Origin: Escherichia phage EcNP1
DNA: 64,000 bases
Direction: 5' to 3' (one strand)
Sequence record: NC_054910.1
Numbering within the stretch: position 1 is the first letter of the stretch; every line of letters starts with the position of its first letter. Made by a program: the position numbers and the translations under genes. A model generated the notes under the pieces. That model had not been told where the DNA came from and ran no database searches. It saw nothing but the letters and a program-made list of their open reading frames with translations. Shown here piece after piece: positions 4,404 to 56,512 of the stretch.

Positions 4404-6500
4404 TTATCCTTGAACGAACTTGTAAGGCATGTTTGTAATATCTATGCAAGACGCAATAATTCCAAGAGATGATTCTACTTTCTGTTTAACGTTTGATGAA
4501 ACAAATGATGCAAAGTCAACTCTGTCTTCTATTTCAATATCACCTGTCATTGCAACTACTTCACCAGTTTCCATTAAATGGTCTCCATCATAAATTACTG
4601 ATTCGGTGAGTTCTTCTGTAGTCATAACTTCAGCTTGAATGAGTTTTGTATTATTAGATGTTGTTCCGTCATTATTAGAAGCATCAGTTATTTTATTAAC
4701 TTTGACCATCAATCCGCGCGGTAGAATAACTTCAGCTTCTGTTGCTATTCCGAGACTTCCTGGATATACAACATTAACTTTATGAGCTCCATCAATTGCC
4801 CATCCTATTTGAACTTTAACGTATTCAGGATTTTCTTTATACGCTCTTATTTCGTTTGGATTAATAGTTATTCCTTCTTCATTTTTATCAACTGTCAATT
4901 CATTACGAGCTTCTGGTTCTAAAAGACCAATACCAGCATGTGTAATTCCAAAACGTCCAAAAATGATAGGAGTTAAAGAAGTAGATACAAAATTTCTGAA
5001 ATAGAACACTTTATTTTTAACTAGTGCTTCGTATATAGGAGCAGTCATACTTTGAGCACGATAAACTGTAATGCCTTCTGGTATACGGTCACCATTTTCA
5101 AAAGCTGAATCTAAGTTATTTATAGCAGATTCAATTTCTTTTTCACTCATTACATCATATCGTTCTGGATTGTAGCGGCCTAAAAGAAGATTATTGATGT
5201 CAGTATATCCTGATCCACAATACTCTCTAATGCCGCGCTTTTGCGATGGAGTATATTTAGAACCATCGCGTGCAATGGTAATATCAATCATTGGACCTGC
5301 ACCAATTCCAGAAAAACTATAAATCATTCGTTTGAGGAATTTAGTTTTTGCTGCGTTCCAGGAATTTTTAGTTATTTCTTCCCAGACTTCATCTGGCTGT
5401 CCTTTACGGGTTTTATTATGTTTATCAAGCCATTTATCTTTGTATTCTTCAAAGAATTTATTAACAGCTGCTGCGTATTTCTCTAAACATTTTATTGAAG
5501 TAGTTGGTTCATTTTTAATCGCATTAAGAATTACATCTTTAATTTTTTCAGAAACTTCATTAACCTCACTTTTTGAAAAGAATTTATAGTCATAGTGAAG
5601 TTCATCTGCAGTTCCTTCAGCAATAATTTTTGCTGCCTTAGTTTTAGAAGCTAATGAATTAATTCCAAGCTTCATTTCTTCTGCTTCTGGAATTAAAGGA
5701 GCAGTAGCAGGTTTATTGAAATTAGCTGCAGTAGATTCATACTTCTGGAATAATTCGCTTTCAAATCTAGAAGATTCTAATGATTGACTTTGCGCAATTG
5801 CTCTACGGGAAATTTTAACTTTAACGATTACAGCTTGGTCAGAGCGTTTATCATTTTCTTGCGCAATAGATGCTGCAATTGCCTCATTTTTAGTTACTTG
5901 AGCACCAGTATCTTTATTGATATAAACATCGCCGACTTTTGATTCAACTTTAGTAAAGAGCTCGGTACTAATTTCCGGAACTCCCGGAATGTCTTCTAGT
6001 GATACATTTTTACGATGTATAAGAATATATGCATACTTTTTATCATAATCCCAGAGTTCCTTAAGAAGGACGTATCTGCCACCTGAACGACTACGGATAA
6101 GTCTATCAGCAATAACTTGAATTTGTCGAGCTTGACCAGCAGTTTTAGACTTAAGAATACGGAGCATACAGGCATCAATTTTATACTGACGCATCGTCTG
6201 CATTGCAACAGTAAAAACTGAATTGATATAATTAATTGGGCTTGGACCGAGACCTTTTAATTTAGCAATTGAACCTTTAGCAGTTAATGTAAAAGGAACA
6301 ATATGCATCATTTTATCGCCCATTTTTAAATCGCGATTAGTATCACCTCCAGATGTATAGGTACATAAACGAAAGCCTGGTTGTTCAATTGCGTCATCGA
6401 CATGAACTGAAAAAATTTGCGGTATTTTCTTCTTTGGATTTAAGTTTGTAATCGGAAGAGTAGTATCTTCGTCAAATAATTCTGTAATGAGTTCCATCAT
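4404..6500 (-). CDS. alt: Alt ADP-ribosyltransferase (head-packaged, injected)
   Basis: 698 aa (T4 Alt 682 aa); ART motifs VYRAQ / FVSTSL / TEAEVILPRG; position between gene 54 and gene 30 as in T4. Confidence 0.85.
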   Translation of the reverse strand: MMELITELFDEDTTLPITNLNPKKKIPQIFSVHVDDAIEQPGFRLCTYTSGGDTNRDLKMGDKMMHIVPFTLTAKGSIAKLKGLGPSPINYINSVFTVAMQTMRQYKIDACMLRILKSKTAGQARQIQVIADRLIRSRSGGRYVLLKELWDYDKKYAYILIHRKNVSLEDIPGVPEISTELFTKVESKVGDVYINKDTGAQVTKNEAIAASIAQENDKRSDQAVIVKVKISRRAIAQSQSLESSRFESELFQKYESTAANFNKPATAPLIPEAEEMKLGINSLASKTKAAKIIAEGTADELHYDYKFFSKSEVNEVSEKIKDVILNAIKNEPTTSIKCLEKYAAAVNKFFEEYKDKWLDKHNKTRKGQPDEVWEEITKNSWNAAKTKFLKRMIYSFSGIGAGPMIDITIARDGSKYTPSQKRGIREYCGSGYTDINNLLLGRYNPERYDVMSEKEIESAINNLDSAFENGDRIPEGITVYRAQSMTAPIYEALVKNKVFYFRNFVSTSLTPIIFGRFGITHAGIGLLEPEARNELTVDKNEEGITINPNEIRAYKENPEYVKVQIGWAIDGAHKVNVVYPGSLGIATEAEVILPRGLMVKVNKITDASNNDGTTSNNTKLIQAEVMTTEELTESVIYDGDHLMETGEVVAMTGDIEIEDRVDFASFVSSNVKQKVESSLGIIASCIDITNMPYKFVQG

Positions 6501-13899: not shown

Positions 13900-14132
13900 A
13901 GTACGCCATACACCCTTTGTGCTTCAACTAATCCATCAAAATCCAATTTGAGATGTGTTATTTGGTCACCATCGCCTGGATTCACAATTACTAATACTGA
14001 ACGAGGAGTTTCGGTAATAACACGAACCGACGTTTCAGGAAATCGTTCAGAAACCTTATTTACCAATTCTTGAGCAAATAGTTTAACTTTTTCTTGGAAT
14101 TCTTTAACAGTAATTGGTTTTTCACTTAGCAT
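13896..14132 (-). CDS. hypothetical protein (78 aa)
   Basis: Track ORF. Confidence 0.5.
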   Translation of the reverse strand: MLSEKPITVKEFQEKVKLFAQELVNKVSERFPETSVRVITETPRSVLVIVNPGDGDQITHLKLDFDGLVEAQRVYGVL

Positions 14133-14653
14133 GTTGATCCTAGCTCCTTACTTTCAACGTTTTTAACTAATTTGACAGAAACTAATTCAGCATCTTGAGT
14201 AATCATTACCGGACCTTCTTCATACTCTTCAAGATATTCTAGAGCTTTCTTTTTAGCTTCTTCCTTCGTATCAGTTTGAGCATAGATATAAAACATACAA
14301 CCAGTAATACCTACTACTTTCCACTTAATTTCTTTATCAGTTTTAATTTCAAATTTACTAACAGAATCATCTTTTTGAACTTCTTCGAAAAAAGAATATT
14401 CTAACATATAAGCAATTGAAAATAACGGACTAACTTTATAGGATTCACCCATTACATCAACAGCTTTATACCAACAATCATCAATTTCGCGTTTAATGCT
14501 AATAACATTTTTCGCAGGATCTATTTTTACTTTAAATGAATTTTCCCCAATAAACTGGGCAATTCGTTTATTAGCCCCGCAAGTTTCATTAAAAATATCT
14601 TTATATCCAGCTTTAAAGCGATAAACCTTATCTTCTTCAAACCATTCGCTCAT
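14126..14653 (-). CDS. hypothetical acidic protein (175 aa)
   Basis: Track ORF downstream of an early promoter. Confidence 0.5.
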   Translation of the reverse strand: MSEWFEEDKVYRFKAGYKDIFNETCGANKRIAQFIGENSFKVKIDPAKNVISIKREIDDCWYKAVDVMGESYKVSPLFSIAYMLEYSFFEEVQKDDSVSKFEIKTDKEIKWKVVGITGCMFYIYAQTDTKEEAKKKALEYLEEYEEGPVMITQDAELVSVKLVKNVESKELGSTC

Positions 14654-15385: not shown

Positions 15386-16603
<1,218 letters not shown>

Positions 16604-16607
<4 letters not shown>

Positions 16608-17982: not shown

Positions 17983-18035
17983 CCTCATGTTGTGTCAGTA
18001 AGTCTACTGTAACACAACATGAGGGACTTGTAAAC
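17983..18035 (-). repeat. copy B of dispersed ~60-bp element: 13-bp perfect inverted repeat plus GTTTAC box
   Basis: CCTCATGTTGTGT-(16 nt)-ACACAACATGAGG then GGACTTGTAAAC; near-identical to the element at 2285-2345. Confidence 0.7.
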
Positions 18036-18038
18036 AGC

Positions 18039-19626
<1,588 letters not shown>

Positions 19627-19653
19627 AATAAAATGGGCCTTGCGGCCCACTCC

Positions 19654-20823
19654 TTAAAAATATTTTTTAAAACTCATCATAACTTTATCATCAACATCAT
19701 TATCAATCTGTGCAACAAGGTAAGATGACAGTTCTACTTCTTGCGGCGCGGATTGAACATTATCAGAATTAAGATATTCACGAATCCAAGGATACGGATG
19801 TTTAACCGGAGCATCGGTAATTGGGCATGGAAGACCGCACTGTTTCATACGAGATACAGTTAAGTAATCAATAAAGCTCCACATGCTATTTGTATTTAAT
19901 CCAGGAACATCGCCATCTTTAAATAAATGAACTGCCCAGTCTTTTTCTTGGCGGTTAACTTCCATGAAAATATCAACTGCTTCTTGTTCACACTCTTGAG
20001 CAATTTTAACCCATTCATCACCATCTGTGCCAAGTTGAAGTTGACGAATAATATATTGGGTGCCTTTAAGGTGTAGCTGTTCATCACGTGCAATGAACTT
20101 CATAATCTTAGCATTACCTTCCATGATTTCCATGTTTTTATGGAAGTTAAAGGTGCATGCGAAAGATACATAAAAACGAATAGCTTCCAAGGCGTTGATT
20201 ACATGCAAGCAGAGGTAAAGAGATTTCATTAATGCTCGTTTAGTACATTCAACAACTTTGCCTAACTCTTCTTTACGAAATCCTTCTGATAAAATTCCTT
20301 CATAATCTTCAACCGCATTCTGATATTCACGAGTCTTAACTAGAACATCATCATAATAGCGACCAATGGACTCGGCACGTTTCATAATAGCTTTATCTAA
20401 TACAATCTCATCAAATACCTTTGACGGATCAGTATAAAGATTTCGCATGATATGAGTATATGAACGGCTGTGAATAGTTTCACTAAAAGTCCATGTAGCA
20501 ACCCATGTATCAAGACTTGGGTCTGAAATTAATGACATAAGTACAGCAGACGGTGCACGACCCTGAATGCTATCCAAAAGTGATTGATACTTCAGATTAT
20601 TAGTAAAAATATCTTGCTGATACTGAGGAAGCTTGTTAAATTGTGCAGCATCCATCATCAAGTTTACTTCTTCAGGACGCCAGAAAAATGACAACTGCTT
20701 TTCGGTTAAATCTTCAAAAACTTTATGACGTTGAATATCGTAACGCGCAATACCAAGACCTGAACCGAAGAACATAGGTTCTTTTAAAACATCAACTGGA
20801 TTTGTATTAAAAACTGTGCTCAT
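19654..20823 (-). CDS. nrdB: ribonucleotide reductase small subunit (uninterrupted)
   Basis: 389 aa (T4 NrdB 388 aa); continuous ORF, no intron. Confidence 0.93.
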   Translation of the reverse strand: MSTVFNTNPVDVLKEPMFFGSGLGIARYDIQRHKVFEDLTEKQLSFFWRPEEVNLMMDAAQFNKLPQYQQDIFTNNLKYQSLLDSIQGRAPSAVLMSLISDPSLDTWVATWTFSETIHSRSYTHIMRNLYTDPSKVFDEIVLDKAIMKRAESIGRYYDDVLVKTREYQNAVEDYEGILSEGFRKEELGKVVECTKRALMKSLYLCLHVINALEAIRFYVSFACTFNFHKNMEIMEGNAKIMKFIARDEQLHLKGTQYIIRQLQLGTDGDEWVKIAQECEQEAVDIFMEVNRQEKDWAVHLFKDGDVPGLNTNSMWSFIDYLTVSRMKQCGLPCPITDAPVKHPYPWIREYLNSDNVQSAPQEVELSSYLVAQIDNDVDDKVMMSFKKYF

Positions 20824-20874
20824 AAATTTTCCGCTTAGTTAATAGATAGTGACTCGTCCGTGAGTCAAATTATA

Positions 20875-23139
20875 TCATAATTTACAGGATGAACAATCTT
20901 CAGCTTTTGGAGTTTCTATTTCATAATCATCAGTACCAGAACCATCACGGGTATTATGATAATAGAAATTTTTTCCGCCAAAATACCAAAAGTACAAAAG
21001 GTCATCAATCATTACAGACATTGGAACCTTTCCTTTTGGAAAAATCTGCGGGTCATAATATGTATTCGCTGAAGCTGATTGACATACCCATTTCAGCATA
21101 ATAGCTACTTGCGTAAGATAAGGTTTATTACCTTTCTTAGCTAATTTCCATGTATAATCATAGAGGTCTATGTTATGTTCAATATTGGGCACGACTTGAT
21201 TAAAGGAACCCTCTTTTGATTCTTTAACCGAGACTGGTCCACGTGGAGGCTCGATACCGTTTGTACTGTTAGAAACTTGGGAAGATGACTCACATGGCAT
21301 AAGTGCTGATAATGTGCTATTACGGATGCCAAAGAGCTTAAGGTCTTCCCGCAGCGACGACCAGTCACAAACGTATTTTGGAGCTGCGATTTGGTCAATC
21401 TTTTTATTGTACCAGTCGATAGGTAATTCGCCTCGAGACCAACGAGTGTCTGAATAATATTCGCAAGGTCCTTTTTCTTTGGCGAGCTTAATGGATGCTT
21501 TGATGAGTCCATACTGTAATCTCTCAAATAGTTCATGTGTTAAATCGTTAGCATCTTCATAAGAAGCAAAGTTACTTGCCAGCCAAGCTGCATAGTTAGT
21601 AACACCTACACCAAGATTTCGACGCTTTTTAGCTTTTTCTGCTTCAGGAACTGGATATCCTTGGTAATCCAAAAGATTATCAAGAGCGCGAACTTGAACT
21701 TCTGCTAATTCATTAATTTTATCTTGGTCTTGCCAATCGAAGTTATCCAACACAAATGCAGATAACGTACACAATCCAATTTCAGCATCAGGGCTATTCA
21801 CATCATTTGTTGGAATAGCAATTTCACAACACAAGTTACTCTGACGAATAGGTGCCTTTTCACGAATAAATGGAGTATAGTTATTCGTATTATCAATGAA
21901 CTGCACATAAATCCTTGCTGTTCCTGAACGTTCAGTCATGAGTAATTCAAACAGTTCACGTGCTTTAATACGCTTTTTACGAATATTAGGGTCTTTTTCT
22001 GCGGCTTCATACAATTCACGGAAACGGTCTTGGTCTTTAAAATAAGAATAATAAAGTTCGCCACCCATTTCATGCGGACTGAACAAAGTAATGTAATCAT
22101 TCTTTCCGAATCGTTCCATCATTAGGTCATTCAGCTGGACGCCATAATCCATATGACGGATACGGTTTTCTTCTACACCTTTGTTATTTTTCAAAACGAG
22201 AAGATTTTCAACTTCCAAATGCCAAATAGGATAATAAGCAGTAGCAGCGCCGCCACGAATTCCACCCTGTGAACATGATTTAACAGCAGTCTGAAAATGT
22301 TTCCAAAAAGGAATAACACCAGTATGACGCACTTCACCTGTGCCAATCTTAGAACCTTCGGCACGAATCATACCAACGTTAATGCCGATTCCAGCTCGTT
22401 TGGAGATATATTCAACAATTGAAGCAGAAGCTTTGTTAATAGACTTCAGCGAATCACCTGCTTCAATAACAACGCATGAACTAAACTGTCGAGTTGGAGT
22501 ACGACATCCAGCCATAATAGGAGTTGGCAGTGAAATCTGTCGAGTAGATACTGCTTCATAAAAACGAATAACATGTTTTAATCTGTCAACAGGTTCATCT
22601 TGATGCAATGCCATTCCAATAGTCATAAATGCAAACTGCGGAGTTTCATAAATTTGACCAGTGGTTTTATCTTTAACGAGATATTTTTCTTTTAATTGCA
22701 TCGCCCCGGAATAAGTAAATTCCATATCCCGCTCGTGCTTAATTTTTGATTCTAAAAATGTAATTTCTTCTGCTGAATATTTTGACAACAGTTCAGGGTC
22801 GTATTTACCTTCATTTACACAGTAAGAAATATGGTCAATAAATGAACGCGGTTCATACTGTCCGTAAACATGCTTACGAAGAGCAAACATTAAACAGCGA
22901 GCGGCTACGTATTGATAATCAGGCTCTTCAACTGAAATAGAATTCGCAGCAGCCTTAATGACAATAGTCTGAATGTCGTCAGTTGTCATTCCATCACGGA
23001 GATATGATTTAATATTTTCATATAATTCATAAGGATCTACAGATGTTCCTTCAGCTGCCCAAGATAAAACTTTAATAATTTTTTGCGGGTAAAAGCTCTG
23101 AGAAACACCACTACTTTTGATAACATTAATTAATTGCAT
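20875..23139 (-). CDS. nrdA: ribonucleotide reductase large subunit
   Basis: 754 aa (T4 NrdA 754 aa); N-terminal ATP-cone, class I RNR active-site region CEIAIPT. Confidence 0.95.
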   Translation of the reverse strand: MQLINVIKSSGVSQSFYPQKIIKVLSWAAEGTSVDPYELYENIKSYLRDGMTTDDIQTIVIKAAANSISVEEPDYQYVAARCLMFALRKHVYGQYEPRSFIDHISYCVNEGKYDPELLSKYSAEEITFLESKIKHERDMEFTYSGAMQLKEKYLVKDKTTGQIYETPQFAFMTIGMALHQDEPVDRLKHVIRFYEAVSTRQISLPTPIMAGCRTPTRQFSSCVVIEAGDSLKSINKASASIVEYISKRAGIGINVGMIRAEGSKIGTGEVRHTGVIPFWKHFQTAVKSCSQGGIRGGAATAYYPIWHLEVENLLVLKNNKGVEENRIRHMDYGVQLNDLMMERFGKNDYITLFSPHEMGGELYYSYFKDQDRFRELYEAAEKDPNIRKKRIKARELFELLMTERSGTARIYVQFIDNTNNYTPFIREKAPIRQSNLCCEIAIPTNDVNSPDAEIGLCTLSAFVLDNFDWQDQDKINELAEVQVRALDNLLDYQGYPVPEAEKAKKRRNLGVGVTNYAAWLASNFASYEDANDLTHELFERLQYGLIKASIKLAKEKGPCEYYSDTRWSRGELPIDWYNKKIDQIAAPKYVCDWSSLREDLKLFGIRNSTLSALMPCESSSQVSNSTNGIEPPRGPVSVKESKEGSFNQVVPNIEHNIDLYDYTWKLAKKGNKPYLTQVAIMLKWVCQSASANTYYDPQIFPKGKVPMSVMIDDLLYFWYFGGKNFYYHNTRDGSGTDDYEIETPKAEDCSSCKL

Positions 23140-23456
23140 AAGTCCTCAACTTGAAAATCGTCTTTAAACAATCGGTTAACTATATGAGCTATTATATCAC
23201 CATGACACGGCTTTGGTTTACATGTGCATCCTAGCCTCATTCCACGTAAAGGCTCTAAATGTGCTTTAGTTATTTCTCCGGATTTAATTCGACGTATAAA
23301 ATCTTTTTTGAATAATTCAATGGCAGCCTCCCGGCTGCCAGCATCTTTACCGACGTAATTTCCCCAAAATGTACCACGGTGAATATTAACATCAAAGTCG
23401 GATTTATATTTATTCACTACCTGGCATAGACGGCCCGCGCGGTGATAATTCGTCAT
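23130..23456 (-). CDS. hypothetical protein (108 aa) with CxC...CH motif
   Basis: Track ORF between td and nrdA; motif [12 protein letters not shown]. Confidence 0.5.
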
Positions 23457-23673
23457 ATTGTTTTTCCGTTAAAACAGTAATATCATAGTAACAATCTGAA
23501 GAAGTTTTAACTGTAGAAATTTTATTATCAAAATACTCACGAGTCATTTTATGAGTATAATATTTTTTGCCGTAAATGATAATAGGCTGATTTGGTCCTG
23601 GAACTTCTAACTCACTTGGATTAGGAAGTGTAAAAAGAACTACACCAGAAGTATCTTTAAATCGTAAAATCAT
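23410..23673 (-). CDS. hypothetical protein (87 aa)
   Basis: Track ORF; 3' end overlaps next ORF. Confidence 0.45.
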
Positions 23674-23696
23674 ATATCCTCACAATTAATAATTAA

Positions 23697-24556
23697 TTAC
23701 ACCGCCATTTTTCCTTTAATAGGAGGGTGTGATTCGTAACCTTTAAGAACGAAATCTTTAGGCCTGAGTTTAAGAACATATTCCAATTGTTCTTTAGTAG
23801 AAAGATAGCGGAATTTATAAGGCAATCCGCCTATTACCAGTTCACAAAGCTCTTTAGGTTCACGACGCAAAATTTCTTTACATTGTTCTACGTGATTCAT
23901 ATAAATATGAGTATTACCGCCAGAAAATATCAAATCTCCTGGAATAAGATTACACATCTTAGCTACAATATGAACTAATGCAGCATATGATGCAATATTA
24001 AATGGAAGACCGAGGAAAACATCTACCGAACGTTGATACCACTGCAAATCCAAATAGCCATTACGCACATTAAACTGATAGAACATATGACAAGGCGGTA
24101 ATGCCATATATTTAAGTTCAGCTGGATTCCATGCAGAAACAATTTGACGCCTATCATTTGGTAGTTTTTTAATACGATCAACAACTTCTATAATTTGGTC
24201 TACACCGCCAAAATCACGCCATTGTTTTCCATAAATTGGACCAAGTTCACCACTATGATATCCTAAATCTTTTGCTTGATTTTCGTAATTTTCATCCCAG
24301 ACTGTTTTGCCTTGAATTAATGAATCATGTTGAATTAATCGCAAATCATTGACATTTATGCTTCCCGATAAAAACCAAAGGAGCTCAGCAATGCAAGCTT
24401 TCCAGGCGAGCTTCTTAGTTGTTACTGCAGGAAAACCTTTACTTAAATCCCAGCGCAATTTAGTACCAAACAAAGCAATTGTTCCTGTGCCTGTTCGGTC
24501 ATCGGTTTCGTAACCATTTTCCAGGATATCTTTAATTAAAAATTGGTATTGTTTCA

Positions 24557-24557
<1 letters not shown>
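23697..24557 (-). CDS. td: thymidylate synthase (intronless)
   Basis: 286 aa from ATG at 24557 (T4 Td 286 aa, MKQYQ...); catalytic region PPCH present; continuous reading frame. Confidence 0.95.
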
Positions 24558-25586
<1,029 letters not shown>

Positions 25587-25594
25587 ATTATCTC

Positions 25595-25930
25595 CTAATA
25601 TAAAGGATCGGGAACATATCCACTGGCTTTAATCATTTTAATTAACGTTAACATTCCTTTATTAACTGCTCGTGAGATTTCATCAAAAACTTCATCACTA
25701 AAAAGTTCTAACACGCCCTTCTGAACTTTTAATTTACAGCCAACAATTTCGTCATCGCCTATAGTAAATTCGTTTCCGCCAATTCCACCAAAAAACTTAA
25801 TTGCACCAGTCAACTGTCTTCCACGAGAATATGGGTCGTGTGATAAAGTAATATGAGTCACCCCAGGTACAGTTTTAAATTGGCAACGGATGTTTACTTG
25901 GGCAATTCCAGTTACGTGAATGTCAGACAT
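25595..25930 (-). CDS. hypothetical protein (111 aa)
   Basis: Track ORF. Confidence 0.5.
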   Translation of the reverse strand: MSDIHVTGIAQVNIRCQFKTVPGVTHITLSHDPYSRGRQLTGAIKFFGGIGGNEFTIGDDEIVGCKLKVQKGVLELFSDEVFDEISRAVNKGMLTLIKMIKASGYVPDPLY

Positions 25931-25940
25931 AATATTTTCC

Positions 25941-26183
25941 TCAAACAGACTTTTTCACAATTTTCCAATCAGCTTTAAACTGATCGACGTCAGAATGATA
26001 AATCCAGAATCCTGCGCTTTCTCCATCCTCATAAAGAGGGCATCCATCACATTCATCTTCCCATCCCATATCACGTAAAAGATGTTCAGCTTTTTCAACG
26101 AGTTCAGAATCTTTACCGATGATATTAAAATACCATTTACCTCTAACTTCTGAATCTTTGATGCTCTGGCGTTGTAATCTCAT
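25941..26183 (-). CDS. hypothetical protein (about 80 aa; track ORF extends to 26282)
   Basis: ATG at 26181-26183 follows GAGGAG RBS and lies downstream of an early promoter. Confidence 0.45.
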   Translation of the reverse strand: MRLQRQSIKDSEVRGKWYFNIIGKDSELVEKAEHLLRDMGWEDECDGCPLYEDGESAGFWIYHSDVDQFKADWKIVKKSV

Positions 26184-26212
26184 TTTTATTCTCCTCAGTA
26201 ATTGATAGGGTA

Positions 26213-26242
26213 ATAGTATCACACTACTACCCAGAAGTAAAC
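26213..26242 (-). promoter_or_regulatory. T4-type early promoter
   Basis: Minus strand GTTTAC + 18 nt + TACTAT. Confidence 0.5.
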
Positions 26243-26643
26243 TACTTTTTGAAAGTTTTTCGCAAAAGTTCAATGATTTCATCTACATTGTTTTCGTCTA
26301 CAATGCAGTGAATTTTTGTTACGCCAGAAATCTTATCTTCGACTTCATCTTCTTCAGAAGTTGGTTCTTTATACTCGCGGAAACAATAAAACTCTTCTTC
26401 ACTAAGTTCAAAATAATCATTACCCATACCATCATCATTATAGATTTCGCCATTAGCACAAATGATTTCAGTTACATAATCAAAGCCATCTAAACTTGAT
26501 ACTGATTTAACTTCAAACCAACCACCATTTTCTTGAATGATGCCGACCATATTAGCATTTGATGAACTAATATCAATGAAAGATTTAATACGATGTGGAT
26601 TTAACTCATATTTTTTGCCGATTTCCATTTTGATTTTCCTCAT
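26242..26643 (-). CDS. hypothetical acidic protein (133 aa)
   Basis: Track ORF. Confidence 0.5.
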   Translation of the reverse strand: MRKIKMEIGKKYELNPHRIKSFIDISSSNANMVGIIQENGGWFEVKSVSSLDGFDYVTEIICANGEIYNDDGMGNDYFELSEEEFYCFREYKEPTSEEDEVEDKISGVTKIHCIVDENNVDEIIELLRKTFKK

Positions 26644-26673
26644 TTTGATAGGGGCTTGACAGCCCCTTGATAA

Positions 26674-26901
26674 TTATTGTTCAATCAGTCCCATGTAAAA
26701 TTCTGCGTCTTCAGCATCCATACCATCACAATATTCATTAGCCATAAAGCGGGTGAGGTCTTCAAGAGGACCTTCAATAACAATTTGAATGCTCCAAAAC
26801 TTAGAATCTTGCACACTTGTAATACTAAGTTCAGGATAACGATTACGAATAATTTCTTCAATATACTCAAAATCAACGATGTCAATATCAACTTTAGCCA
26901 T
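26674..26901 (-). CDS. hypothetical acidic protein (75 aa)
   Basis: Track ORF just downstream of gene 32 terminator. Confidence 0.5.
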
Positions 26902-26984
26902 ATTATTTTCCTCTTTAATCGTCAGCAGTATTGCCGATAGTTGTATAGTACCATGGAAGAACAGGGATGTAAACTGTTTTGTGA

Positions 26985-27024
26985 AAAAATTTTTGAAATA
27001 AAAAAGGGGACCTCTAGGGTCCCC
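26985..27024 (-). terminator. gene 32 intrinsic terminator
   Basis: Minus RNA GGGGACC-CUAGA-GGUCCCC followed by UUUUUAUUU. Confidence 0.7.
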
Positions 27025-27955: not shown

Positions 27956-28036
27956 TTTTATTTCCTTTTTAATTTAATTAACAGTTGGTGCTATGACGAT
28001 GTATGACCTCATAGCTGGTCAGTGAGATAATTATAA
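27956..28036 (-). promoter_or_regulatory. gene 32 leader: late promoter, pseudoknot and autoregulatory operator
   Basis: Minus strand TATAAATA at ~28029-28036; pseudoknot-forming UGACCAGCUAUGAGGUCAUACAUCGUCAUAGC at ~27980-28011; AU-rich unstructured stretch up to the ATG. Confidence 0.7.
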
Positions 28037-28054
28037 TCTATTTATAATAAGCAA

Positions 28055-36035: not shown

Positions 36036-39020
36036 ATGGCTACTTTAAAACAAATACAATTTAAAAGAAGCAAAACTGCAGGTCAACTTCCTGCCGCTTC
36101 AGTATTAGCCGAAGGTGAATTGGCTATTAATTTAAAAGATAAAACAATTTTCACAAAAGATGACTCAGGCAATGTTATAGAATTAGGTTTAAAATATGGA
36201 GGAACAATTGATGGTTCTTTAACTGTTAATGGAAATATAATTGGAAATTTAACAGGTAACGCTGCAACTGCAACCAAATTAAAAACAGCACGAAAAATTA
36301 ATGGTATATCCTTTGATGGGTCAAAAGATATCACGCTAACTCCATCCGACATAAATGTCAATAGCACAACGTTTATAAAAAATAACGGCGAATTACCTGT
36401 TGATGCTAATTTAGATACGTATGGGCCTGTTGAAGAATATCTTGGAGTTTGGTCGAAAGCAACTTCAACCAACGCTCAACCAGCAAATAAATTTCCAGAA
36501 GACAATGCTGTAGGTGTGCTAGAAGTATTTGTGGCCGGTCAATTTGCTGGTACTCAGAGATATACAACTAGATACGGAAATGTTTATATTCGTTCCTTGA
36601 CTGCTACATGGAACGGAGTAAATGGTCCGTGGAGTGTGTGGCGAAATATTCAATCTGGTACTCGTCCACTGTCAACAACAATTGATCTTAATGATCTAGG
36701 AGGCGCTGAACACTTTGGTTTGTGGCGAAATAGTTCAAATTCCATTGCTACATTTGACAGAAATTTCCCAGAAGAGGGGTCGTCAGCTCAAGGTCTTTTG
36801 GAAGTATATGAAGGTGGAAACTATTCTCGTACACAAAGATATACAACCAGATTTGGTGTTGTTTATACTCGTTGTCTTGCTGCCGCGTGGGATTCTACTG
36901 CGCCTAAATGGGGACCGTGGCAACAAGTCGGTAATGTCACACCAGCGACTTTTTATGATGGAGATCTGAATGATTTTAAAACTCCTGGGTTATATAATAT
37001 TTTAGGCACTGATGCCGTTATTAATTGTCCTACAGGCGAAGGTTTACCAGCCGTTATTGTTGGTTTGCTGGAAGTTAAACAGCGTGCTTCTGGTGGTGCT
37101 ATTTTCCAAAAATTTACTACTGCCGGAACAGGTGCAACTACCCGCGATCGTATTTTTGAGCGCGCATATACCGGCGGTGTGTGGGGTGAATGGAACGAAG
37201 TATACACATCTTATTCTCTACCAATTACTTTGGGTATGGGCGGTATTAAATCTAACTTAGCAGAGTTAGACTGGCAAACATTTGATTTTGTTCCTGGTAG
37301 TATGTTTAGCGTTCCTTTGAACAAAATAAAGAACATGCCAGCTAATATGGATTGGGGTACGATTGACGGAAACTTAATTATGTTTTCTGTTGGTCCTAGC
37401 GAGCACACCAGCACAGGACGTACTGTTCAGGTTTGGCGTGGTACTGTATCCCAGACAAACTACCGTTATTTTGTCGTTCGTGTATTCGGTAATTCAGGAA
37501 ATAGAACTTGCACAGTTCGTCGCGTTGTTCTTGAAGATGGTCGCCACAAATGGACAGCGCAACAAGATTTTAATGGCGCAGTTAACTTCGGTGCTCCTAC
37601 CAATTTTAACTCTACTGTTAACCTTAATAACACTACCACTTTTAAAACAGAAGTTAAATTTCGCTCATTGAATGCATTCCGTATGTATGGCGGAAAATTT
37701 GGTACAATTTTCCGTAATGATGGAGAGAGTCTTTATATTCTTTCCACCGACGAAGATGACCAAGATGGAAACTTTAATACAAATAGACCTTTCCGTTATG
37801 AATTGAGAACTGGCGATGTTACTTTAGGCGGTACTAGTGGTGCTAACGTTTTAAAATTAAAACGTGATTCTCTCACCGCATTTTTTGGCGGTGATATTAA
37901 CATGAAAGGCGTGCTGACTTTTGACGCCGGACGTTTAGGATCACGAGATTATTTTAAATTTAACCATTGGGGTGATAGTAATAATGCGCGTGATAACATT
38001 ATTCAGTTAGAAGACAGCAAAGGCGCTCATTTTTCCACTGAACGTACTTTAGCGACTGGTGCAATTAAGACTAAATTTTTTGGTGAAATTGAATCCGATG
38101 GTAAATTGGTTATTAAACGTCCGGGTGATTCTATTGTATTATCAACAACTGCTAGTAATTCTTTGCATATTCGTGGTGACATAGACGGGACTGGTAACTG
38201 GTATATTGGTAAGGGTGGTGCTGATAATGGATTAGCGTTATATAGTTATGCTACTAATGCTGGTGTATACATTACAAACGCAGGAGATATCACGCTAAGT
38301 CCAAAAGGCGTCGAAATGGCTCATGTTAATAACGTTCGATTATATGTTCATGGTGAACGTTGGACTGCTAGTCAACCAGGTGATTGGGGTAGTCAGTGGC
38401 AAGTGGAAGCGCCAATATTCGTCGATCATGGTTATGTTTCACAGGATTGTTATTATCCAATTATTAAAGGAAGAAGTGTAATCACCAATCAAGGGTTTGT
38501 AACTGCCGTCGATCTTGGTATTCGTCGTGTCAATAACAATTGGGGACAAGCAATTATTCGTGTTGGATCTGCGGAGGCATCGCCAGCGGCTGGACACCCT
38601 AACGCGGTATTTGAATTTCATTACGACGGTACTTTCTATTCTCCTGGTAATGGTAACTTTAACGATGTGTATATTCGTTCCGATGGTCGACTTAAGATCA
38701 ATAAAGAAGAGTTAGAAAACGGAGCACTTGAAAAAGTTTGCCGACTGAAAGTTTATATTTACGATAAAGTTAAGTCTATTAAAGACCGTAGTGTTATTAA
38801 ACGTGAAGTTGGTATTATTGCTCAGGACCTTGAAAAGGAATTACCGGAAGCTGTATCTAAAGTTGAAGTTGATGGATCTGATGTTCTGACAATTTCTAAC
38901 TCTGCTGTGAATGCTCTTTTAATTAAGGCTATTCAGGAAATGAGTGAAGAAATTAAAGAATTGAAAACGCCTTTCTTCACTAAAATTGCTCGCAAAATTA
39001 GTAATTATTTTAAATTCTAA
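36036..39020 (+). CDS. 37: long tail fibre distal subunit gp37 with C-terminal intramolecular-chaperone-like domain
   Basis: 994 aa; conserved N-terminus [35 protein letters not shown]; C-terminal ~113 aa (from ~38679) has SDGRLK motif and [25 protein letters not shown] typical of autocleaving fibre/tailspike chaperone domains. Confidence 0.93.
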
Positions 39021-39052
39021 CAACAAGGGGCTTTGCCCCTTTGGAGAAAATT

Positions 39053-39853
39053 ATGGCAGTAGTTGGTGTTCCCGGCTGGATTGGAAGTTCATCCGTAAAT
39101 GAAACAGGACAACGATGGATGAGTCAAGCGGCTGGTCAATTAAGATTGGGTGTTCCTTGCTGGATGAGCCAATTCGCCGGACGCTCAAGAGAGATTATTC
39201 ATACCGTAACAGCAAACCATAACTTTAATGGTCAATGGTTCCGTGATAGGTGCTTTGAAGCTGGCGGTGCACCCATTGTATTCAATATTGTTGGTGATAT
39301 CGTTTCTTATTCTAAAGATGTGCCACTTTTCTTTATGTATGGGGATACGCCTAATGAATATGTTGTTCTTAATATTCATGGTGGTGTTCATATGTGGGGT
39401 CGTGGTGGTAATGGTGGATACACTCACTCAGGAGGCGACGGTAACGGTACACAAGGCGGTCATGTTATTCAAAATGATATCGGTGGACGGCTTCGTATTT
39501 GGAACTACGGTGTTATAGCTGCTGGGGGTGGCGGCGGCGGTGGTATTGCATATCGTCCACACTCAGGGGCAAACTGGCAAGATATCGGTGGCGGCGGCGG
39601 TCGACCTTTCGGTGGTGCTGGCGGTGGCGGTTATTCCGGTGGTGCTGCTTCGTATGAAGGTCCGGGTGGTGGTTATGACTATGGTAACGCACACTCCGGC
39701 GCAGGTGGTAATGCTGGTGCTGCTGGTCAGAATGCATGGTCTGACGGCGGTAAAGTTCTTAAAGTTGGTGTTGGTGGTGCGTCTGGTCATGCAGTGTTTG
39801 GGTCTTCTCCAACTTGGGGTGCTGTTGGAACAATTTACGGACCAAGAGTATAA
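39053..39853 (+). CDS. 38: T2-type receptor-binding adhesin gp38 (glycine-rich motifs + hypervariable segments)
   Basis: 266 aa from ATG 39053 (track start 39041 is TTG); N-terminus [13 protein letters not shown]; poly-Gly motifs [38 protein letters not shown] separated by short variable segments. Confidence 0.88.
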
Positions 39854-43394: not shown

Positions 43395-43544
43395 TTACTG
43401 CATGACTGTGATAACTGTCATGATAACACGTTGAATGCCGAACGCAAGAAGACCTCCTGCTACAGCTGGAACAACACCTAAACCCGCCAGTAAAATGCCA
43501 CCGGATACTAATGCAGCGCTTGTAATACCTATGAATGGACTCAT
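43395..43544 (-). CDS. small hydrophobic membrane peptide (49 aa, motA.1-like position)
   Basis: Not in track; ATG overlaps gene 52 stop; MSPFIGITSAALVSGGILLAGLGVVPAVAGGLLAFGIQRVIMTVITVMQ. Confidence 0.4.
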   Translation of the reverse strand: MSPFIGITSAALVSGGILLAGLGVVPAVAGGLLAFGIQRVIMTVITVMQ

Positions 43545-44869
43545 TTGATTTCCTCTAAATCTTTGGTGTATTCTGTAACTACATCAGTAGTTTTCCAATA
43601 TTCGTTTTCTTCTTTCTTAGCTTTAGCTTCTTCAGCAAGTTTCTTTGCTTCGTCGGAAGTCATATGAAAAATATTCATTCCGACTAGTTTATCAACATAA
43701 GAAGAATACATATCAATTTTAGAAAGTTCTTCGGTCAGTTCTTTGCGAGTTTTACCTTGTACAACAATTTCACCTGAAATTACTTTCTTAATGAAATGTG
43801 CCTTGGCAAAGGCTAAACGAAATGCTGATTCAGTTTCTTTGATTTTGTTATCAATTCGTTTTTGGACATAAGTTTTACGAACTTCAACGAAGTCTTTGAT
43901 TAAATCAACTACGTTATCGTAAACTTGTAGCTTTCCTTTCTCGTTGATGACTGTAATATTTTGGGAACGACGCTCAATCAACCCGAAGTCTTTCATGATT
44001 TTTGCATGGCGTTCTTCTTCGTTATCACTCAAAGAGTATTCTTTGCGGAATTTAACTTTAAAGCCAAAACCATGCTCACCACAAGCATCATCCCATGTAA
44101 TGAAGCCTTTATCTTCAAGCGGGTCTAAGATTTTACTCACATAAGTTTCACGATCATACTTATACGGAATCTCAGTGATATTCATTTGAGTTCGTGAAGT
44201 AAACTTGTACGTTCCACGAATTTCATATTGGCCATCAATTTCAACGACTTCACCACGAAATTCTGGAAATTCTACCTTCGGTTTAGTTACTTTCTTTCCT
44301 TGAAGAGCTTGTAGTACAGCTTTCTTGACAGAAGAAACACTATGAGGAAGAATGTAAGTTGCATAACCAGTTGCAATACCGGAAACACCATTAAGAAGAA
44401 CAGTAGGAATAATAGGCAAATAGAAAGCAGGAGGAATGTGTTCTTTATCTTGATGTACCGGAGCATATTCAGTATCTTTATATACGTTATAGAAATTTTT
44501 ACTTACACGAGCAAAAATATAACGACTCGCCGCTGCTTTTTGAACGGTACGAGAACCAAAGTTTCCTTGACCATCTAACAAAGGAAAGTTATTATTCCAA
44601 GTGTTAGCCATCAAAGCCCCCGCATCTTGTGCAGAGTTTTCACCATGATGATATCCAAGGTCAGCTACACCACCTGCAATAGAAGCAAGTTTGTGAAACT
44701 TATCTTTATTTCCTCGCGCCAAATCAAGAGCTCGAGCAATAACAAATCGTTGAACTGGCTTAAATCCATCAATCATATTTGGAATAGCACGATTTTCAAC
44801 CGTGTACATAGCATAAGCCAGTGCTTCATTATCAATGATACTTTTTAAATCGCGATTATTCAGTTGCAT
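43541..44869 (-). CDS. 52: DNA topoisomerase II medium subunit gp52
   Basis: 442 aa (T4 gp52 442 aa); GyrA-like N-terminus with PNMIDGFKPVQRFV. Confidence 0.95.
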   Translation of the reverse strand: MQLNNRDLKSIIDNEALAYAMYTVENRAIPNMIDGFKPVQRFVIARALDLARGNKDKFHKLASIAGGVADLGYHHGENSAQDAGALMANTWNNNFPLLDGQGNFGSRTVQKAAASRYIFARVSKNFYNVYKDTEYAPVHQDKEHIPPAFYLPIIPTVLLNGVSGIATGYATYILPHSVSSVKKAVLQALQGKKVTKPKVEFPEFRGEVVEIDGQYEIRGTYKFTSRTQMNITEIPYKYDRETYVSKILDPLEDKGFITWDDACGEHGFGFKVKFRKEYSLSDNEEERHAKIMKDFGLIERRSQNITVINEKGKLQVYDNVVDLIKDFVEVRKTYVQKRIDNKIKETESAFRLAFAKAHFIKKVISGEIVVQGKTRKELTEELSKIDMYSSYVDKLVGMNIFHMTSDEAKKLAEEAKAKKEENEYWKTTDVVTEYTKDLEEIK

Positions 44870-46664: not shown

Positions 46665-46937
46665 TCATAGTTCAATCTCAGCGATTTTCATTTCATTACT
46701 ATTAATAGCCGCTTTAAGACTATCTGAAAGAATTACATTCCAGTGGTCATTCATATGACCATTAACTAAGCGTGTAATTTCTTCGGGAGTTGAAAAATAA
46801 GGCGTATCAGACTCCCAGTGCGATAGTCCCAAGCGAGTATAAATCATACCTTCATCATCGATAGAATATTCAACTGACACAAACTCATCAGTTATTTTAT
46901 GTTTAGCGTAATAAAATTTAAATTTCATTTTACTCAA
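46665..46937 (-). CDS. hypothetical protein (90 aa)
   Basis: Track ORF. Confidence 0.5.
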   Translation of the reverse strand: MSKMKFKFYYAKHKITDEFVSVEYSIDDEGMIYTRLGLSHWESDTPYFSTPEEITRLVNGHMNDHWNVILSDSLKAAINSNEMKIAEIEL

Positions 46938-47140
46938 TAATCCGCTAAAAGATCGACAATTGCATCACGAAGACACTTATTCGCAATACGTTTAAGAGCA
47001 ATTTCAGTTTCTGGAGCATTTTGAATAATCATTGAATTCAATTCAGCCTCAGCAAACTGAAGTTCTTTAACTAATTCAGCTTTATATTTTCCTTGCCCTT
47101 TCTTAGCTTTTGCTCGTTTTAATTCAGCTGTAGTAAACAT
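46934..47140 (-). CDS. hypothetical protein (68 aa; track ORF extends to 47239)
   Basis: ATG at 47138-47140 lies downstream of the early promoter at 47175-47204. Confidence 0.45.
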   Translation of the reverse strand: MFTTAELKRAKAKKGQGKYKAELVKELQFAEAELNSMIIQNAPETEIALKRIANKCLRDAIVDLLADY

Positions 47141-47174
47141 TTTATTCTCCAAATCCGTATCAGTTGATAGTTGT

Positions 47175-47204
47175 ATAGTACCACAGTCCTTGTGGTATGT
47201 AAAC
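47175..47204 (-). promoter_or_regulatory. T4-type early promoter
   Basis: Minus strand GTTTAC + 18 nt + TACTAT with ACCACA/TGTGGT inverted repeat in the spacer. Confidence 0.5.
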
Positions 47205-47220
47205 TGTTTTGTGAAAATTT

Positions 47221-47778
47221 TTAAATGGAAAGATACCATCCGCTGTAGTTGCTTTTTCTTACAACCTTACGAAGGTCTTCTCTATCACCGATGAACTTCG
47301 GAGTGTACTGGATGACACCTGGATGAATTTCTTTAGTGTTGAATATAATTATACAGTCAGCGACTTGATGATTTAGAATGGGCCCTAGATTTATTCCAGA
47401 ACCGTATGGATACTCTCCGCTGCATCCGGTTGTTACCGAAATCCAACGTGAGTCAGTTTGATGTGTTTTGACTTCTACACGAAGCCCGCAGTATTTTGGA
47501 TGCGCCAGTACATCCCACGCATATGTATACGGGTCATTAACATCCTCTTGGCCTTTGTTAACATACCCGCTTAGCCAATCTGCTACAAAAAACTCTGCGT
47601 ACACCGCGATACGGCATCTTTCGATAACTTCTGCTTTATCCTGATTTGGATTTTGTTTTAAAGAGTATCTTGCTGTATCAGCAATTTTGACCTTCATTTC
47701 ACTAGTCAAGTCACTGTTCGATAGGGTAAATGTCGGAATCTGAAATAGTCTCTGTAAACCCGGATTCGTTTTCTGCAT
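47221..47778 (-). CDS. denB: endonuclease IV (DenB), by size and position
   Basis: 185 aa (T4 DenB 185 aa); between ndd cluster and rIIB. Confidence 0.7.
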   Translation of the reverse strand: MQKTNPGLQRLFQIPTFTLSNSDLTSEMKVKIADTARYSLKQNPNQDKAEVIERCRIAVYAEFFVADWLSGYVNKGQEDVNDPYTYAWDVLAHPKYCGLRVEVKTHQTDSRWISVTTGCSGEYPYGSGINLGPILNHQVADCIIIFNTKEIHPGVIQYTPKFIGDREDLRKVVRKSNYSGWYLSI

Positions 47779-51657: not shown

Positions 51658-51687
51658 ATTATACCACATCCTTGTGGTAAAGTAAAC
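51658..51687 (-). promoter_or_regulatory. T4-type early promoter for the rIIA operon
   Basis: Minus strand GTTTAC (overlapping gene 39 stop) + 18 nt + TATAAT with TGG extended -10; CCACA/TGTGG inverted repeat in spacer. Confidence 0.6.
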
Positions 51688-53507
51688 TATTGGCTCATCC
51701 ATTCTTTACGAAGGTCAGCATTATCTCCCATGAGCATTTCAAAAAGCTCTTTCCAGTTCTCAGGAAGTTTAACAACATCATATACTGGGTTTTGAATCAT
51801 CTCACGATATTCAGATTTTTCCAAAGAGCCAAGTCCCTTAATATAACGGATGCTATGTTTAGGTAGAGCATCTTTAGCACTCTCATATTCAGCGACTGTA
51901 TAAAACCATTCTTGTTTTTTACCGACCTGAGCGATGATTACAGGAGTTTTGACAAAGCGAATTCTTCCTTGTTCAAACAGTTCTGGCCAATTACTAAAAA
52001 ATCCGAGCAGAGAAGGATAAATGCTTCCTAGACCATCATGGTCAGCATCAGTCATAATAGCAATATTATGATAATTCAAGTTTTCGGCTTTTTCACCAAG
52101 AACTAATCCAGTGATTGCGCAAATATCAAACAGCTCTTTGTTTTTAAGCATATCAGCATATGACATACCCCAGCTGTTAAGAACTTTACCACGCAATGGA
52201 TAACCGCCATGAAGTTCTTTATCACGAACATCAATAAGATATCCGATAGCAGAATCACCCTCAGTCAAGAAAAGAGTAGTGTCAGCATCTTTACCACAAA
52301 GATTCGCTTTAATATGTTTATGAACCTTAGCTTTAGAGGCCTTTTTAGCTGCTTTAGTTTCTGCTGCTTTTTCTGCCGCCAATTTACGAGCCAAGGCAGC
52401 TTCAATGATTGGCATTAAAATTGCTTCATTATTTAAAATAGCACGTGAAATCTTTTTAGCATCAAGCTGAATATGACTACGAATTTCACCAAATGGAGAA
52501 GTCAAACGCTCTTTAGTTTGAGAATCAAATCGCATGTTTTTCATATCACGAACAAACATAACGATAGTCAAACATTCTTTAACACGTGCTTTAGTTACAT
52601 CAATTTTGAATTTACGTTTGATTTGTGGAATAAGGTCTTCACAAATATCATCCATAACACAATCAATATGATGGCCACCATTCTTGGTATGAATGTTATT
52701 GACGTATGTTAATTGACGAAAACCATCCGGTGAACGACCGACCGCAATAGAACAATTTTCTTGTTCTTGAACGATAGCATGTTCATCATATTGGCGTGCA
52801 TATTTCTTAAAATTACCCTGAACCTTTTTACCATTAAAGGTAAATTGAATATCAGGATAAACTACTGCAAGTGTCTGGAGACGATCCAGTGTAATGTCAA
52901 GATAAACTTGAGATAGCTCATTAGTTTCAAATGACATAAAATCAGGAATAAAAGTAACGCGAGTTCCTTTCCATTTTCCAGGAATATCTTCCCATGATTT
53001 ATTTTCCATGCCATTCGAGCAGCGAACTACAATATTATTTTGACCGTCGCCAGTTTCACCGACAAACATCACAGAAAAAATGTTAGTTAAACTAGAACCA
53101 ACACCGTTCATACCGCCAGTGACGCGTTCTTTATCATCACCAAAGTTACCACCTGCTTTTGGAATAGTCCATGCAGCAACAGGACCAGGAATTTCTTCAC
53201 CGGTAGGTGTTTTAACCATCGCCTGTGGAATACCACGACCGTTATCTTCAACTGTTACTTGATTGTTTTTGATAGTAACATTAATTTTATTTGCGAATTT
53301 AAACTTAGTACGAATACCTTCATCTACTGAGTTATCAATAATTTCATCAATAAGCTTAACAAGACCAGGTACATACTGAACACTTTCCCATTTACCAAAC
53401 AGAAAGCGCTCATGCATTTCATTAGCAGAAGAGCCAATATACATGCCGCTACGCTTTTTGATATGTTCAATATCGCTCAGAATTTTAATTTCATTCTTAA
53501 TCATCAC
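51687..53507 (-). CDS. 39: DNA topoisomerase II large subunit, unsplit (T4 gp39 + gp60 equivalent)
   Basis: 606 aa single ORF; GyrB-type ATPase motif VEDNGRGIP; no internal stop, bypass gap or inserted gene. Confidence 0.92.
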   Translation of the reverse strand: MMIKNEIKILSDIEHIKKRSGMYIGSSANEMHERFLFGKWESVQYVPGLVKLIDEIIDNSVDEGIRTKFKFANKINVTIKNNQVTVEDNGRGIPQAMVKTPTGEEIPGPVAAWTIPKAGGNFGDDKERVTGGMNGVGSSLTNIFSVMFVGETGDGQNNIVVRCSNGMENKSWEDIPGKWKGTRVTFIPDFMSFETNELSQVYLDITLDRLQTLAVVYPDIQFTFNGKKVQGNFKKYARQYDEHAIVQEQENCSIAVGRSPDGFRQLTYVNNIHTKNGGHHIDCVMDDICEDLIPQIKRKFKIDVTKARVKECLTIVMFVRDMKNMRFDSQTKERLTSPFGEIRSHIQLDAKKISRAILNNEAILMPIIEAALARKLAAEKAAETKAAKKASKAKVHKHIKANLCGKDADTTLFLTEGDSAIGYLIDVRDKELHGGYPLRGKVLNSWGMSYADMLKNKELFDICAITGLVLGEKAENLNYHNIAIMTDADHDGLGSIYPSLLGFFSNWPELFEQGRIRFVKTPVIIAQVGKKQEWFYTVAEYESAKDALPKHSIRYIKGLGSLEKSEYREMIQNPVYDVVKLPENWKELFEMLMGDNADLRKEWMSQ

Positions 53508-53573: not shown

Positions 53574-53843
53574 TTATTTAAAACGGATAGTCGAATCCTT
53601 GAAGAATAGACCAGAACATACTGTTCCTTCTACTTTCTGCCCGGTAGGTCCAATAGCACGAAATCCAGTGTGTTGGAAATCATTTTCAGAGCAACCGAAC
53701 CAATTATATCCAGTGATTTCAATATTAGTAAAACCACTTGAAGACAAAACTTTGGTTGCATTATCGGCATCAGTACATCCTACTAAAGATACTGCTAATA
53801 CTAATGCCGCGATAGAACGATTAACATATTTCATAATTTTCAC
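53574..53843 (-). CDS. predicted lipoprotein (89 aa)
   Basis: Signal peptide with lipobox AVSLVGC; Cys-containing mature region. Confidence 0.6.
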   Translation of the reverse strand: MKIMKYVNRSIAALVLAVSLVGCTDADNATKVLSSSGFTNIEITGYNWFGCSENDFQHTGFRAIGPTGQKVEGTVCSGLFFKDSTIRFK

Positions 53844-54217
53844 TTAAATTTAATGGCTTGAAGGAGACTAATAATTCTCAAGCGACTTCTTTCATCTTTA
53901 ACTGTAAAAGAAAGAGGGTCACCAGATTTCATAGTGATGGTGCATCCAAAATCAAAATCTTCTGTAACTTCTTCGAATAGGTCAAATTCTTCATCATAAA
54001 TTAGAACATTACTCTGAAAACTGTGAAGAATTTTTCCATCATTTCCAGATGCTGTACTAATCATTGTAACATTATTACCCTTCATATCTTCAACGATAAA
54101 TTCGCCTGTAGATATTACATTACTAATAGAACCATTCCTATAAATAGCAGAAAATAGATATTTCTTTTCTTCACCTTCGCGAATGCGATATTTCTTACCG
54201 ATTTTAAACATAATCAT
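53840..54217 (-). CDS. hypothetical protein (125 aa)
   Basis: Track ORF. Confidence 0.5.
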   Translation of the reverse strand: MIMFKIGKKYRIREGEEKKYLFSAIYRNGSISNVISTGEFIVEDMKGNNVTMISTASGNDGKILHSFQSNVLIYDEEFDLFEEVTEDFDFGCTITMKSGDPLSFTVKDERSRLRIISLLQAIKFK

Positions 54218-55040: not shown

Positions 55041-55322
55041 TTAATTGAACAGTGGAGCGATGCGTTTCAGAAGAGTAGCAGCACCTTTGGCAAATTTTAC
55101 ATCATGAAAAACAGTTTCTTCTTCCGTTACAACACGAACTTTAATGTTTTCACAATCCCAATTTTTGCGAACAATCTTCAAAAGCTGCAGTAAATCTTTA
55201 CATTCAGCAATATCGATAACACACCCACGAGAATCTTCCATTATCGCACGATAACCGTAAGCCATACCATAATCGTTGAAAGATTGCTCGATGATAATTA
55301 AGTTTTCCATTTTATTCTCCAA
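55041..55322 (-). CDS. hypothetical protein (93 aa)
   Basis: Track ORF. Confidence 0.5.
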   Translation of the reverse strand: MENKMENLIIIEQSFNDYGMAYGYRAIMEDSRGCVIDIAECKDLLQLLKIVRKNWDCENIKVRVVTEEETVFHDVKFAKGAATLLKRIAPLFN

Positions 55323-55972: not shown

Positions 55973-56512
55973 TTAATTTAAAATAGCTACCACTGCACTA
56001 CGAGGTACTACACTAAAATCACCTGCATGAACAACGTTCAGAAGTTCAACACCATCTTCAATCCACTGGTCTGTTACCCAACCACAGACCGAAATAAATG
56101 GAGTCTTGATAGCTACCGCACGAGTCAAAAGGTCAGTAGGATCGCATTCTTGGAAGAGGATGAACTCTGCTTCAAAGACTATAGTTTTAATTACTTCATC
56201 ATTATCTAAACGGTGTACTCGAATCACGTAAGCTTTATTCTTATCATGCCAGTTACTTTTTGAAAAGCTTTTAACCACAAACTCGCCTTCACCAAAAACA
56301 TTAGTCAATGCTTTATAACCCAAATTTAGTTCAGTAGTTTTAATTTCAGTTTCAACCAGTTTGTAGATTTTGCCGATTTCAATAGCGGTAGTCATAGTAG
56401 GTTCCTTAATTTCCAGTGGTTTAACAGGGCATACATAAGTGCTTACAACATCAAAATCAATCAGTTTAGCTACCGGATTCGGTGTGTATTCAGGATTATA
56501 ATTAAATTTCAT
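55973..56512 (-). CDS. MotB paralog (179 aa)
   Basis: C-terminal (I/V)TDQW(V/I)EDGV.L.NVV segment shared with the adjacent MotB-like ORF. Confidence 0.5.
   Translation of the reverse strand: MKFNYNPEYTPNPVAKLIDFDVVSTYVCPVKPLEIKEPTMTTAIEIGKIYKLVETEIKTTELNLGYKALTNVFGEGEFVVKSFSKSNWHDKNKAYVIRVHRLDNDEVIKTIVFEAEFILFQECDPTDLLTRAVAIKTPFISVCGWVTDQWIEDGVELLNVVHAGDFSVVPRSAVVAILN

Follow-up and report, generated by a model that had tools for sequence, protein, structure and literature searches.

Unsplit gene 39 and empty homing-endonuclease sites in a T2-type segment of Escherichia phage EcNP1

Compared with related phages, T4 has its topoisomerase gene split by a mobA insertion, and T4 is itself an outlier with 15 homing endonucleases, most of its relatives having few (PMC2988022). 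A gene 39 that reads through this junction, as in Escherichia phage EcNP1, raises two questions: whether the segment around it is free of such elements, and whether an empty site was never invaded or has lost what it once carried. We analysed a 64,000-nucleotide stretch of the EcNP1 record (NC_054910.1), referred to here as the window. Five T4 mobile insertions belong to this interval: MobA with 60.1 and the translational bypass, the I-TevI intron of td, the I-TevIII intron of nrdB, mobE with nrdB.1, and segG. All five are cleanly missing (Table 1). We conclude that EcNP1 is, almost certainly, a T2-type Tequatrovirus with uninvaded alleles at all five T4 homing-endonuclease loci of the interval. 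This conclusion covers 64 kb of a genome of ~165 kb, and homing endonucleases may lie elsewhere in the phage.

Table 1. Genes and empty insertion sites in the EcNP1 window
Feature	Coordinates	Strand	Basis
denA (endonuclease II), conserved host-DNA-degradation nuclease	19216..19650	-	99.3% identical to T4 DenA; Pfam GIY-YIG E = 5.4e-6
nrdB, intronless, 389 aa	19654..20823	-	ORF, Pfam Ribonuc_red_sm, T4 alignment
nrdA-nrdB spacer, 51 nt, with a 6-bp hairpin and the nrdB ribosome-binding region; empty mobE/nrdB.1 site	20824..20874	-	blastn against T4
td (thymidylate synthase), intronless, 286 aa	23697..24557	-	ORF, Pfam, T4 alignment
gene 32/gene 59 spacer, 99 nt, empty segG site	27956..28054	-	blastn against T4
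gene 52, GyrA-like cleavage/religation subunit, gp39 partner	43541..44869	-	Pfam DNA_topoisoIV E = 1.6e-76; collinear with T4 gene 52
Empty MobA-cassette site, 64 nt encoding ...A-ENLNYHNIAIMTDADHDGLG...	52023..52086	-	blastn against T4, T2 alignment
gene 39, unsplit topoisomerase II large subunit (GyrB-like ATPase/Toprim)	51687..53504	-	ORF, T4/T2 alignment, Pfam

Genomic context

The window is collinear with T4 (NC_000866) in the same orientation, matching in blastn a span that runs from ~120.7 kb to the end of the T4 record and on to ~15.1 kb, with DNA identity mostly about 92–96%. Among public records, natural Tequatrovirus isolates come closest: vB_EcoM_Nami shares 99.1% identity across the 13 kb that run from the rnlA/nrdB region to rnh, and vB_EcoM_JE01 shares 98.6% across the gene 39 region. 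At its tip, the tail fibre is of T2 type, and Pfam identifies a GP38 adhesin at 39041–39853. By sequence, the window is classed as a T2-type Tequatrovirus segment.

Two further regions deserve description in their own right. The receptor-binding module (36036–39853, plus strand) is T2-type, unlike the T4 gp37/gp38 arrangement; its gp37 (994 aa) ends in a Peptidase_S74 intramolecular-chaperone domain and is followed by the GP38 adhesin (270 aa). On the minus strand, 2343–4400 and 4404–6500 are two tandem full-length alt paralogues of 685 and 698 aa, both carrying an ADP-ribosyltransferase domain. T4 has a single alt copy and the short remnants alt.-1 and alt.-2 from an old duplication.

An undivided topoisomerase subunit

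Gene 39 of the window is one unbroken open reading frame (51687–53507 when an upstream GTG is included). Numbered over the 606 codons of that frame, residues 2–474 correspond to T4 gp39 1–473 (466/473 identical, 98.5%) and residues 473–606 to T4 gp60 27–160 (128/134 identical, 95.5%). Both T4 proteins thus align onto a single frame, as the original prediction had it. That prediction also set the length at 606 aa, which needs correction, because it includes a GTG at position 53507, the codon before the likely start. The sequence upstream of the gene is GAGGATAAGTGATG, in which GAGG lies 7 nt 5' of the ATG at 53504; because this is Shine–Dalgarno spacing, the ATG is the likely start, giving 605 aa, a length also annotated for gene 39 of T2 and T4.

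Pfam recognizes HATPase_c at residues 47–149 of gp39 (38.3 bits; cutoff, 26.4), DNA_gyraseB at 250–384 (51.1 bits; cutoff, 27) and TOPRIM_C at 519–604 (30.7 bits; cutoff, 29). Toprim itself, at residues 410–492, scores 17.5 bits, under its cutoff of 23.1, and the Toprim motifs LTEGDSA and MTDADHDG are readable in the frame. The features of a type IIA GyrB-like subunit, namely a GHKL ATPase with its transducer, and a Toprim domain with the Toprim-associated C-terminal domain, are therefore found in one polypeptide. The flanks are those of T2, with rIIA.1 downstream and gene 39.1 upstream.

Gene 39 encodes a complete GyrB-like subunit, with ATPase, transducer and Toprim, as a single polypeptide. 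Its GyrA-like partner comes from gene 52, and the type II topoisomerase of the phage is therefore made of two subunits, gp39 and gp52, as opposed to the three in T4, with no translational bypass required.

The empty MobA site

The difference from T4 is confined to a short interval. Where T4 has 1,117 nt (2794–3910), comprising the gp39 tail, mobA, 60.1, the gp60 head and the 50-nt bypass gap, blastn aligns only the 64 nt listed in Table 1. T4 gp39 ends in a 43-residue C-terminal tail and gp60 begins with an N-terminal extension of ~31 residues; neither has an equivalent in the window, where the short linker ENLNYH stands instead. The position of the T4 coding gap falls between window positions 52032 and 52031, where the codons GGT and CTA adjoin. 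The window reads GAC CAT GAT GGT CTA GGA AGC without a break; T4, in contrast, reads GAT CAC GAT GGA, the last codon being Gly46 of gp60, then the 50-nt coding gap, then TTA GGT TCT. The T4 bypass has GGA as both take-off and landing codon, a UAG stop and a hairpin.

Traces of the cassette were sought by several routes. The 50-nt gap sequence has no fuzzy match anywhere in the window, MobA and gp60.1 give nothing below E = 0.9 in tblastn searches of the window, and an HNH profile gives nothing below E = 0.7 in its six frames (T4 control, 4e-19). The contiguous codons and the unmatched gap sequence uphold the earlier claim that the gene 60 bypass is missing, and the replacement of 1,117 nt by 64 nt, with no MobA match, does the same for the claim that gene 39 holds no inserted mob gene.

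The 64-nt segment is identical to that of T2. A preprint reports that the MobA element removes 64 nt from the Topo2L gene (bioRxiv 10.1101/2022.08.31.505936), a length that agrees with the 64 nt found in the window. In T4, the split and the bypass are located within the Toprim DxDxD motif (MTDADHDG/LG, the slash marking the break). Insertion of the MobA cassette into this conserved region gave rise to the three-subunit T4 enzyme and its 50-nt bypass; the cassette itself probably never entered the EcNP1 lineage.

Intron-free td and nrdB

Global alignment of td with its T4 counterpart leaves one 1,017-nt gap, equivalent to the intron with I-TevI, at a site between window positions 24009 and 24008; the td frame spans the full Pfam Thymidylat_synt model (1–266/266). 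The nrdB alignment leaves a 598-nt gap, equivalent to the intron with the I-TevIII remnant, between 20157 and 20156. Neither gene requires group I self-splicing, and both are translated directly.

The intron-free status of the two genes rests on reading-frame and alignment evidence. A group I intron scan with Rfam at its gathering threshold returned 0 matches in the window and also 0 on T4 td and nrdB, despite their real introns; the threshold misses these genuine ORF-bearing introns in the T4 control (positions 18000–27000 of the T4 stretch used). The Rfam negative is unusable for ruling out such introns because those of the T4 control went undetected.

Around the td intron site, 9/90 positions of the window differ from the joined T4 exons; the corresponding count for T2 is 8/90, and several of the differences are shared. 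The CAACG cleavage motif 5' of the site is kept. At nrdB, the exon-1 side (20157–20315) is ~83% identical to T4, with small indels, and the exon-2 side ~96%; gene conversion in the past may account for the divergence on the exon-1 side.

Intergenic sites and the search for endonucleases

Two further T4 elements are missing from between genes. At the nrdA-nrdB spacer, blastn shows the absence of 700 nt of T4 sequence with nrdB.1 and mobE. Between genes 32 and 59, T4 147919–148541 (623 nt, segG) is missing, a site that the original prediction overlooked. The hairpin of the nrdA-nrdB spacer (TGACTC-N6-GAGTCA) has a folding energy indistinguishable from that of shuffled sequences (z = -0.5); as its fold is no better than theirs, we assign it no function.

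We then considered the window as a whole. All 15 T4 homing endonucleases, gp60.1 and NrdB.1 were searched against it by tblastn and, DenA excepted, none gave a match better than E = 0.018. Profile HMMs of the Seg/I-Tev GIY-YIG and Mob HNH domains, run with filters off on all 1,183 frames of 25 aa or longer from a six-frame translation, reached at best E = 0.26, and that match is denA. The same profiles, applied to the corresponding T4 segment, recovered I-TevI, SegG, MobE and what remains of MobA, with E-values from 1e-19 to 1e-48. The sole GIY-YIG-domain protein in the window is denA, which is not a homing endonuclease. At none of the empty sites did tblastn or the six-frame profiles find scars or endonuclease remnants.

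The original prediction therefore fares well on its main points. It had stated that HNH and GIY-YIG homing endonuclease genes are missing from the window, and both searches are negative where the T4 controls are positive; that denA is the conserved endonuclease II, which its identity to T4 DenA bears out; that td and nrdB are uninterrupted, which agrees with the continuous frames, the Pfam matches and the exact absence of the T4 intron segments; and that the nrdA-nrdB spacer holds just a short hairpin where T4 has mobE, which is what we find in its 51 nt. It had also proposed aligning gene 39, td and nrdB with T4, and the alignments locate the insertion points and reveal no intron-like or endonuclease-gene insertions.

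Origin of the empty state

An endonuclease-free state could also be secondary, some of the elements (the introns, mobE, segG) having once been carried and then lost, whether deleted precisely or exchanged by recombination for the empty alleles of co-infecting phages. Recombination among T-even phages is free, and the distribution of introns and endonucleases among them is patchy, as our record counts (below) and earlier work (PMC2988022) show. The contrast in nrdB between the two sides of the intron site (83% versus 96% identity to T4) would likewise fit past gene-conversion traffic. Gene 39, however, argues against such a history, as MobA insertion removes 64 nt that the window keeps in a form identical to T2. 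Because the replaced 64 nt are intact, simple excision at gene 39 is excluded, and the site could be secondarily empty only if an uninvaded allele had replaced the invaded one. The lack of scars or remnants at any site also speaks against loss. Overall, we consider secondary loss unlikely and prefer alleles that were never invaded, and the distinction leaves the present-day identity of the loci unchanged.

Alternatively, such elements might be present in the window without having been recognised. Every window stretch that is non-collinear with T4 was inspected, and its ORFs have no nuclease family match in Pfam or PHROGs; they are PHROGs of unknown function, the alt paralogues, a motB-related ORF or the gp37/gp38 module. 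Several of the small ORFs are described here. Between frd and td lies a 68-aa ORF (24557–24763, minus strand) that belongs to phrog_9550, has no Pfam match and occurs in 135 phage records. In T4, the frd and td genes overlap at this junction; T2 differs again in having a 115-aa ORF there, so the junction is variable. Two minus-strand ORFs, at 14126–14653 and 53840–54217, are not at these positions in T4. They belong to the same PHROGs as each other (phrog_622 and phrog_3710), are weakly similar to goF-type proteins and appear to form a dispersed paralogous family. Other small minus-strand ORFs that are inserted or replaced relative to T4 lie at 16287–16607, 25341–25930, 46665–47239, 55041–55322 and 55973–56512; all belong to PHROGs of unknown function, and the last also has a MotB-like C-terminal segment.

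One of the T4-absent ORFs (for instance the 68-aa ORF, either of the two paralogues or 46665–47239) might be an unrecognised homing endonuclease or selfish element, given that they sit at variable junctions of conserved genes, are patchily distributed and have no assigned function. Such variable small ORFs are, however, ubiquitous in the hyperplastic regions of T4-like genomes. The candidates match no nuclease in Pfam or PHROGs, nor the T4 Seg, Mob and I-Tev profiles, and most are 68–125 aa, too short for a nuclease and a DNA-binding domain. We regard this explanation as very improbable. It is similarly hard to credit that a small, patchily distributed junction ORF, such as the 68-aa frd/td ORF or the phrog_622/phrog_3710 paralogues, belongs to a hitherto unrecognised class of selfish or mobile cassettes at sites like those of the free-standing T4 homing endonucleases.

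An engineered or laboratory T4 derivative with its introns and endonuclease genes deleted would fit the way in which all the T4 elements are missing, cleanly and in frame, but we reject it as practically inconceivable, as the window differs from T4 throughout (about 94–96% identical, that is, 4–6% divergence), carries the T2-type gp37/gp38 adhesin module, duplicated alt genes and several non-T4 ORFs, and has natural isolates such as vB_EcoM_Nami as its closest records.

Frequency of the empty alleles

We counted each state among 50,697 phage records, taking as the comparison base the roughly 550 records that match the gene 39 region. The unsplit gene 39 junction was found in 451 records, using a 191-nt probe placed on the junction and covered over at least 80% of its length, and the T4 MobA cassette in 41–43. 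The td intron occurs in 260 records (197 near full length), the nrdB intron in 191 (118 near full length), the mobE region in 143 (20 near full length) and segG in 142. Because these counts are set against the ~550 gene 39-region records, the empty allele is the majority state at each site, at gene 39 by roughly ten to one. The literature likewise has T4 as the exception, its homing endonucleases, introns and bypass cassette being missing from most relatives.

For annotation, gene 39 should be entered as one topoisomerase large subunit of 605 aa, and td and nrdB as simple ORFs.

Comparison with T2

T2 has long been used as the recipient in studies of intron homing (td and nrdB), of MobE, SegG and MobA, and of marker exclusion. 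It is a separate isolate from EcNP1, the closest record of which is vB_EcoM_Nami. The original prediction called EcNP1 a clean recipient background for the study of intron and endonuclease-gene invasion. As a proposal about recipient status this is reasonable, because the 64-nt segment equals that of T2 and the td site keeps CAACG and diverges from T4 much as T2 does; we infer from these sequences that the empty sites are probably still cleavable by MobA, I-TevI, MobE and SegG. The significance attached to the proposal was overstated, as the configuration is that of the majority, duplicates T2 and covers 64 kb alone. EcNP1 could replace T2 in homing crosses, with no evident advantage.

The expected behaviour follows that of T2. 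The MobA element homes into T2 according to Bonocora et al. 2011, as cited in a preprint (bioRxiv 10.1101/2022.08.31.505936), and the target sites of T4 endonucleases correspond to T2 markers that are excluded in T2 x T4 co-infections (PMC2988022). Were a T4-type phage to infect the same cell, the empty loci of EcNP1 would be converted to donor alleles, and EcNP1 markers would be lost.

Site by site, the two phages agree. In T2 (AP018813), the td, nrdB, nrdA/nrdB, 32/59 and gene 39 sites are empty as in the window, with an 861-nt td, a 51-nt nrdA-nrdB spacer and a 99-nt 32/59 spacer, the spacer lengths being equal in the two phages. The 1,818-nt gene 39 of T2 (2447–4264) encodes a protein of the same length, 605 aa, of which 604/605 residues are identical to those in the window; the genes differ by 72 synonymous or near-synonymous nucleotide differences in 1,818 nt, with one substitution, F70L. 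An unsplit gene 39 together with empty insertion sites is thus the ordinary T2-type configuration, which was already known.
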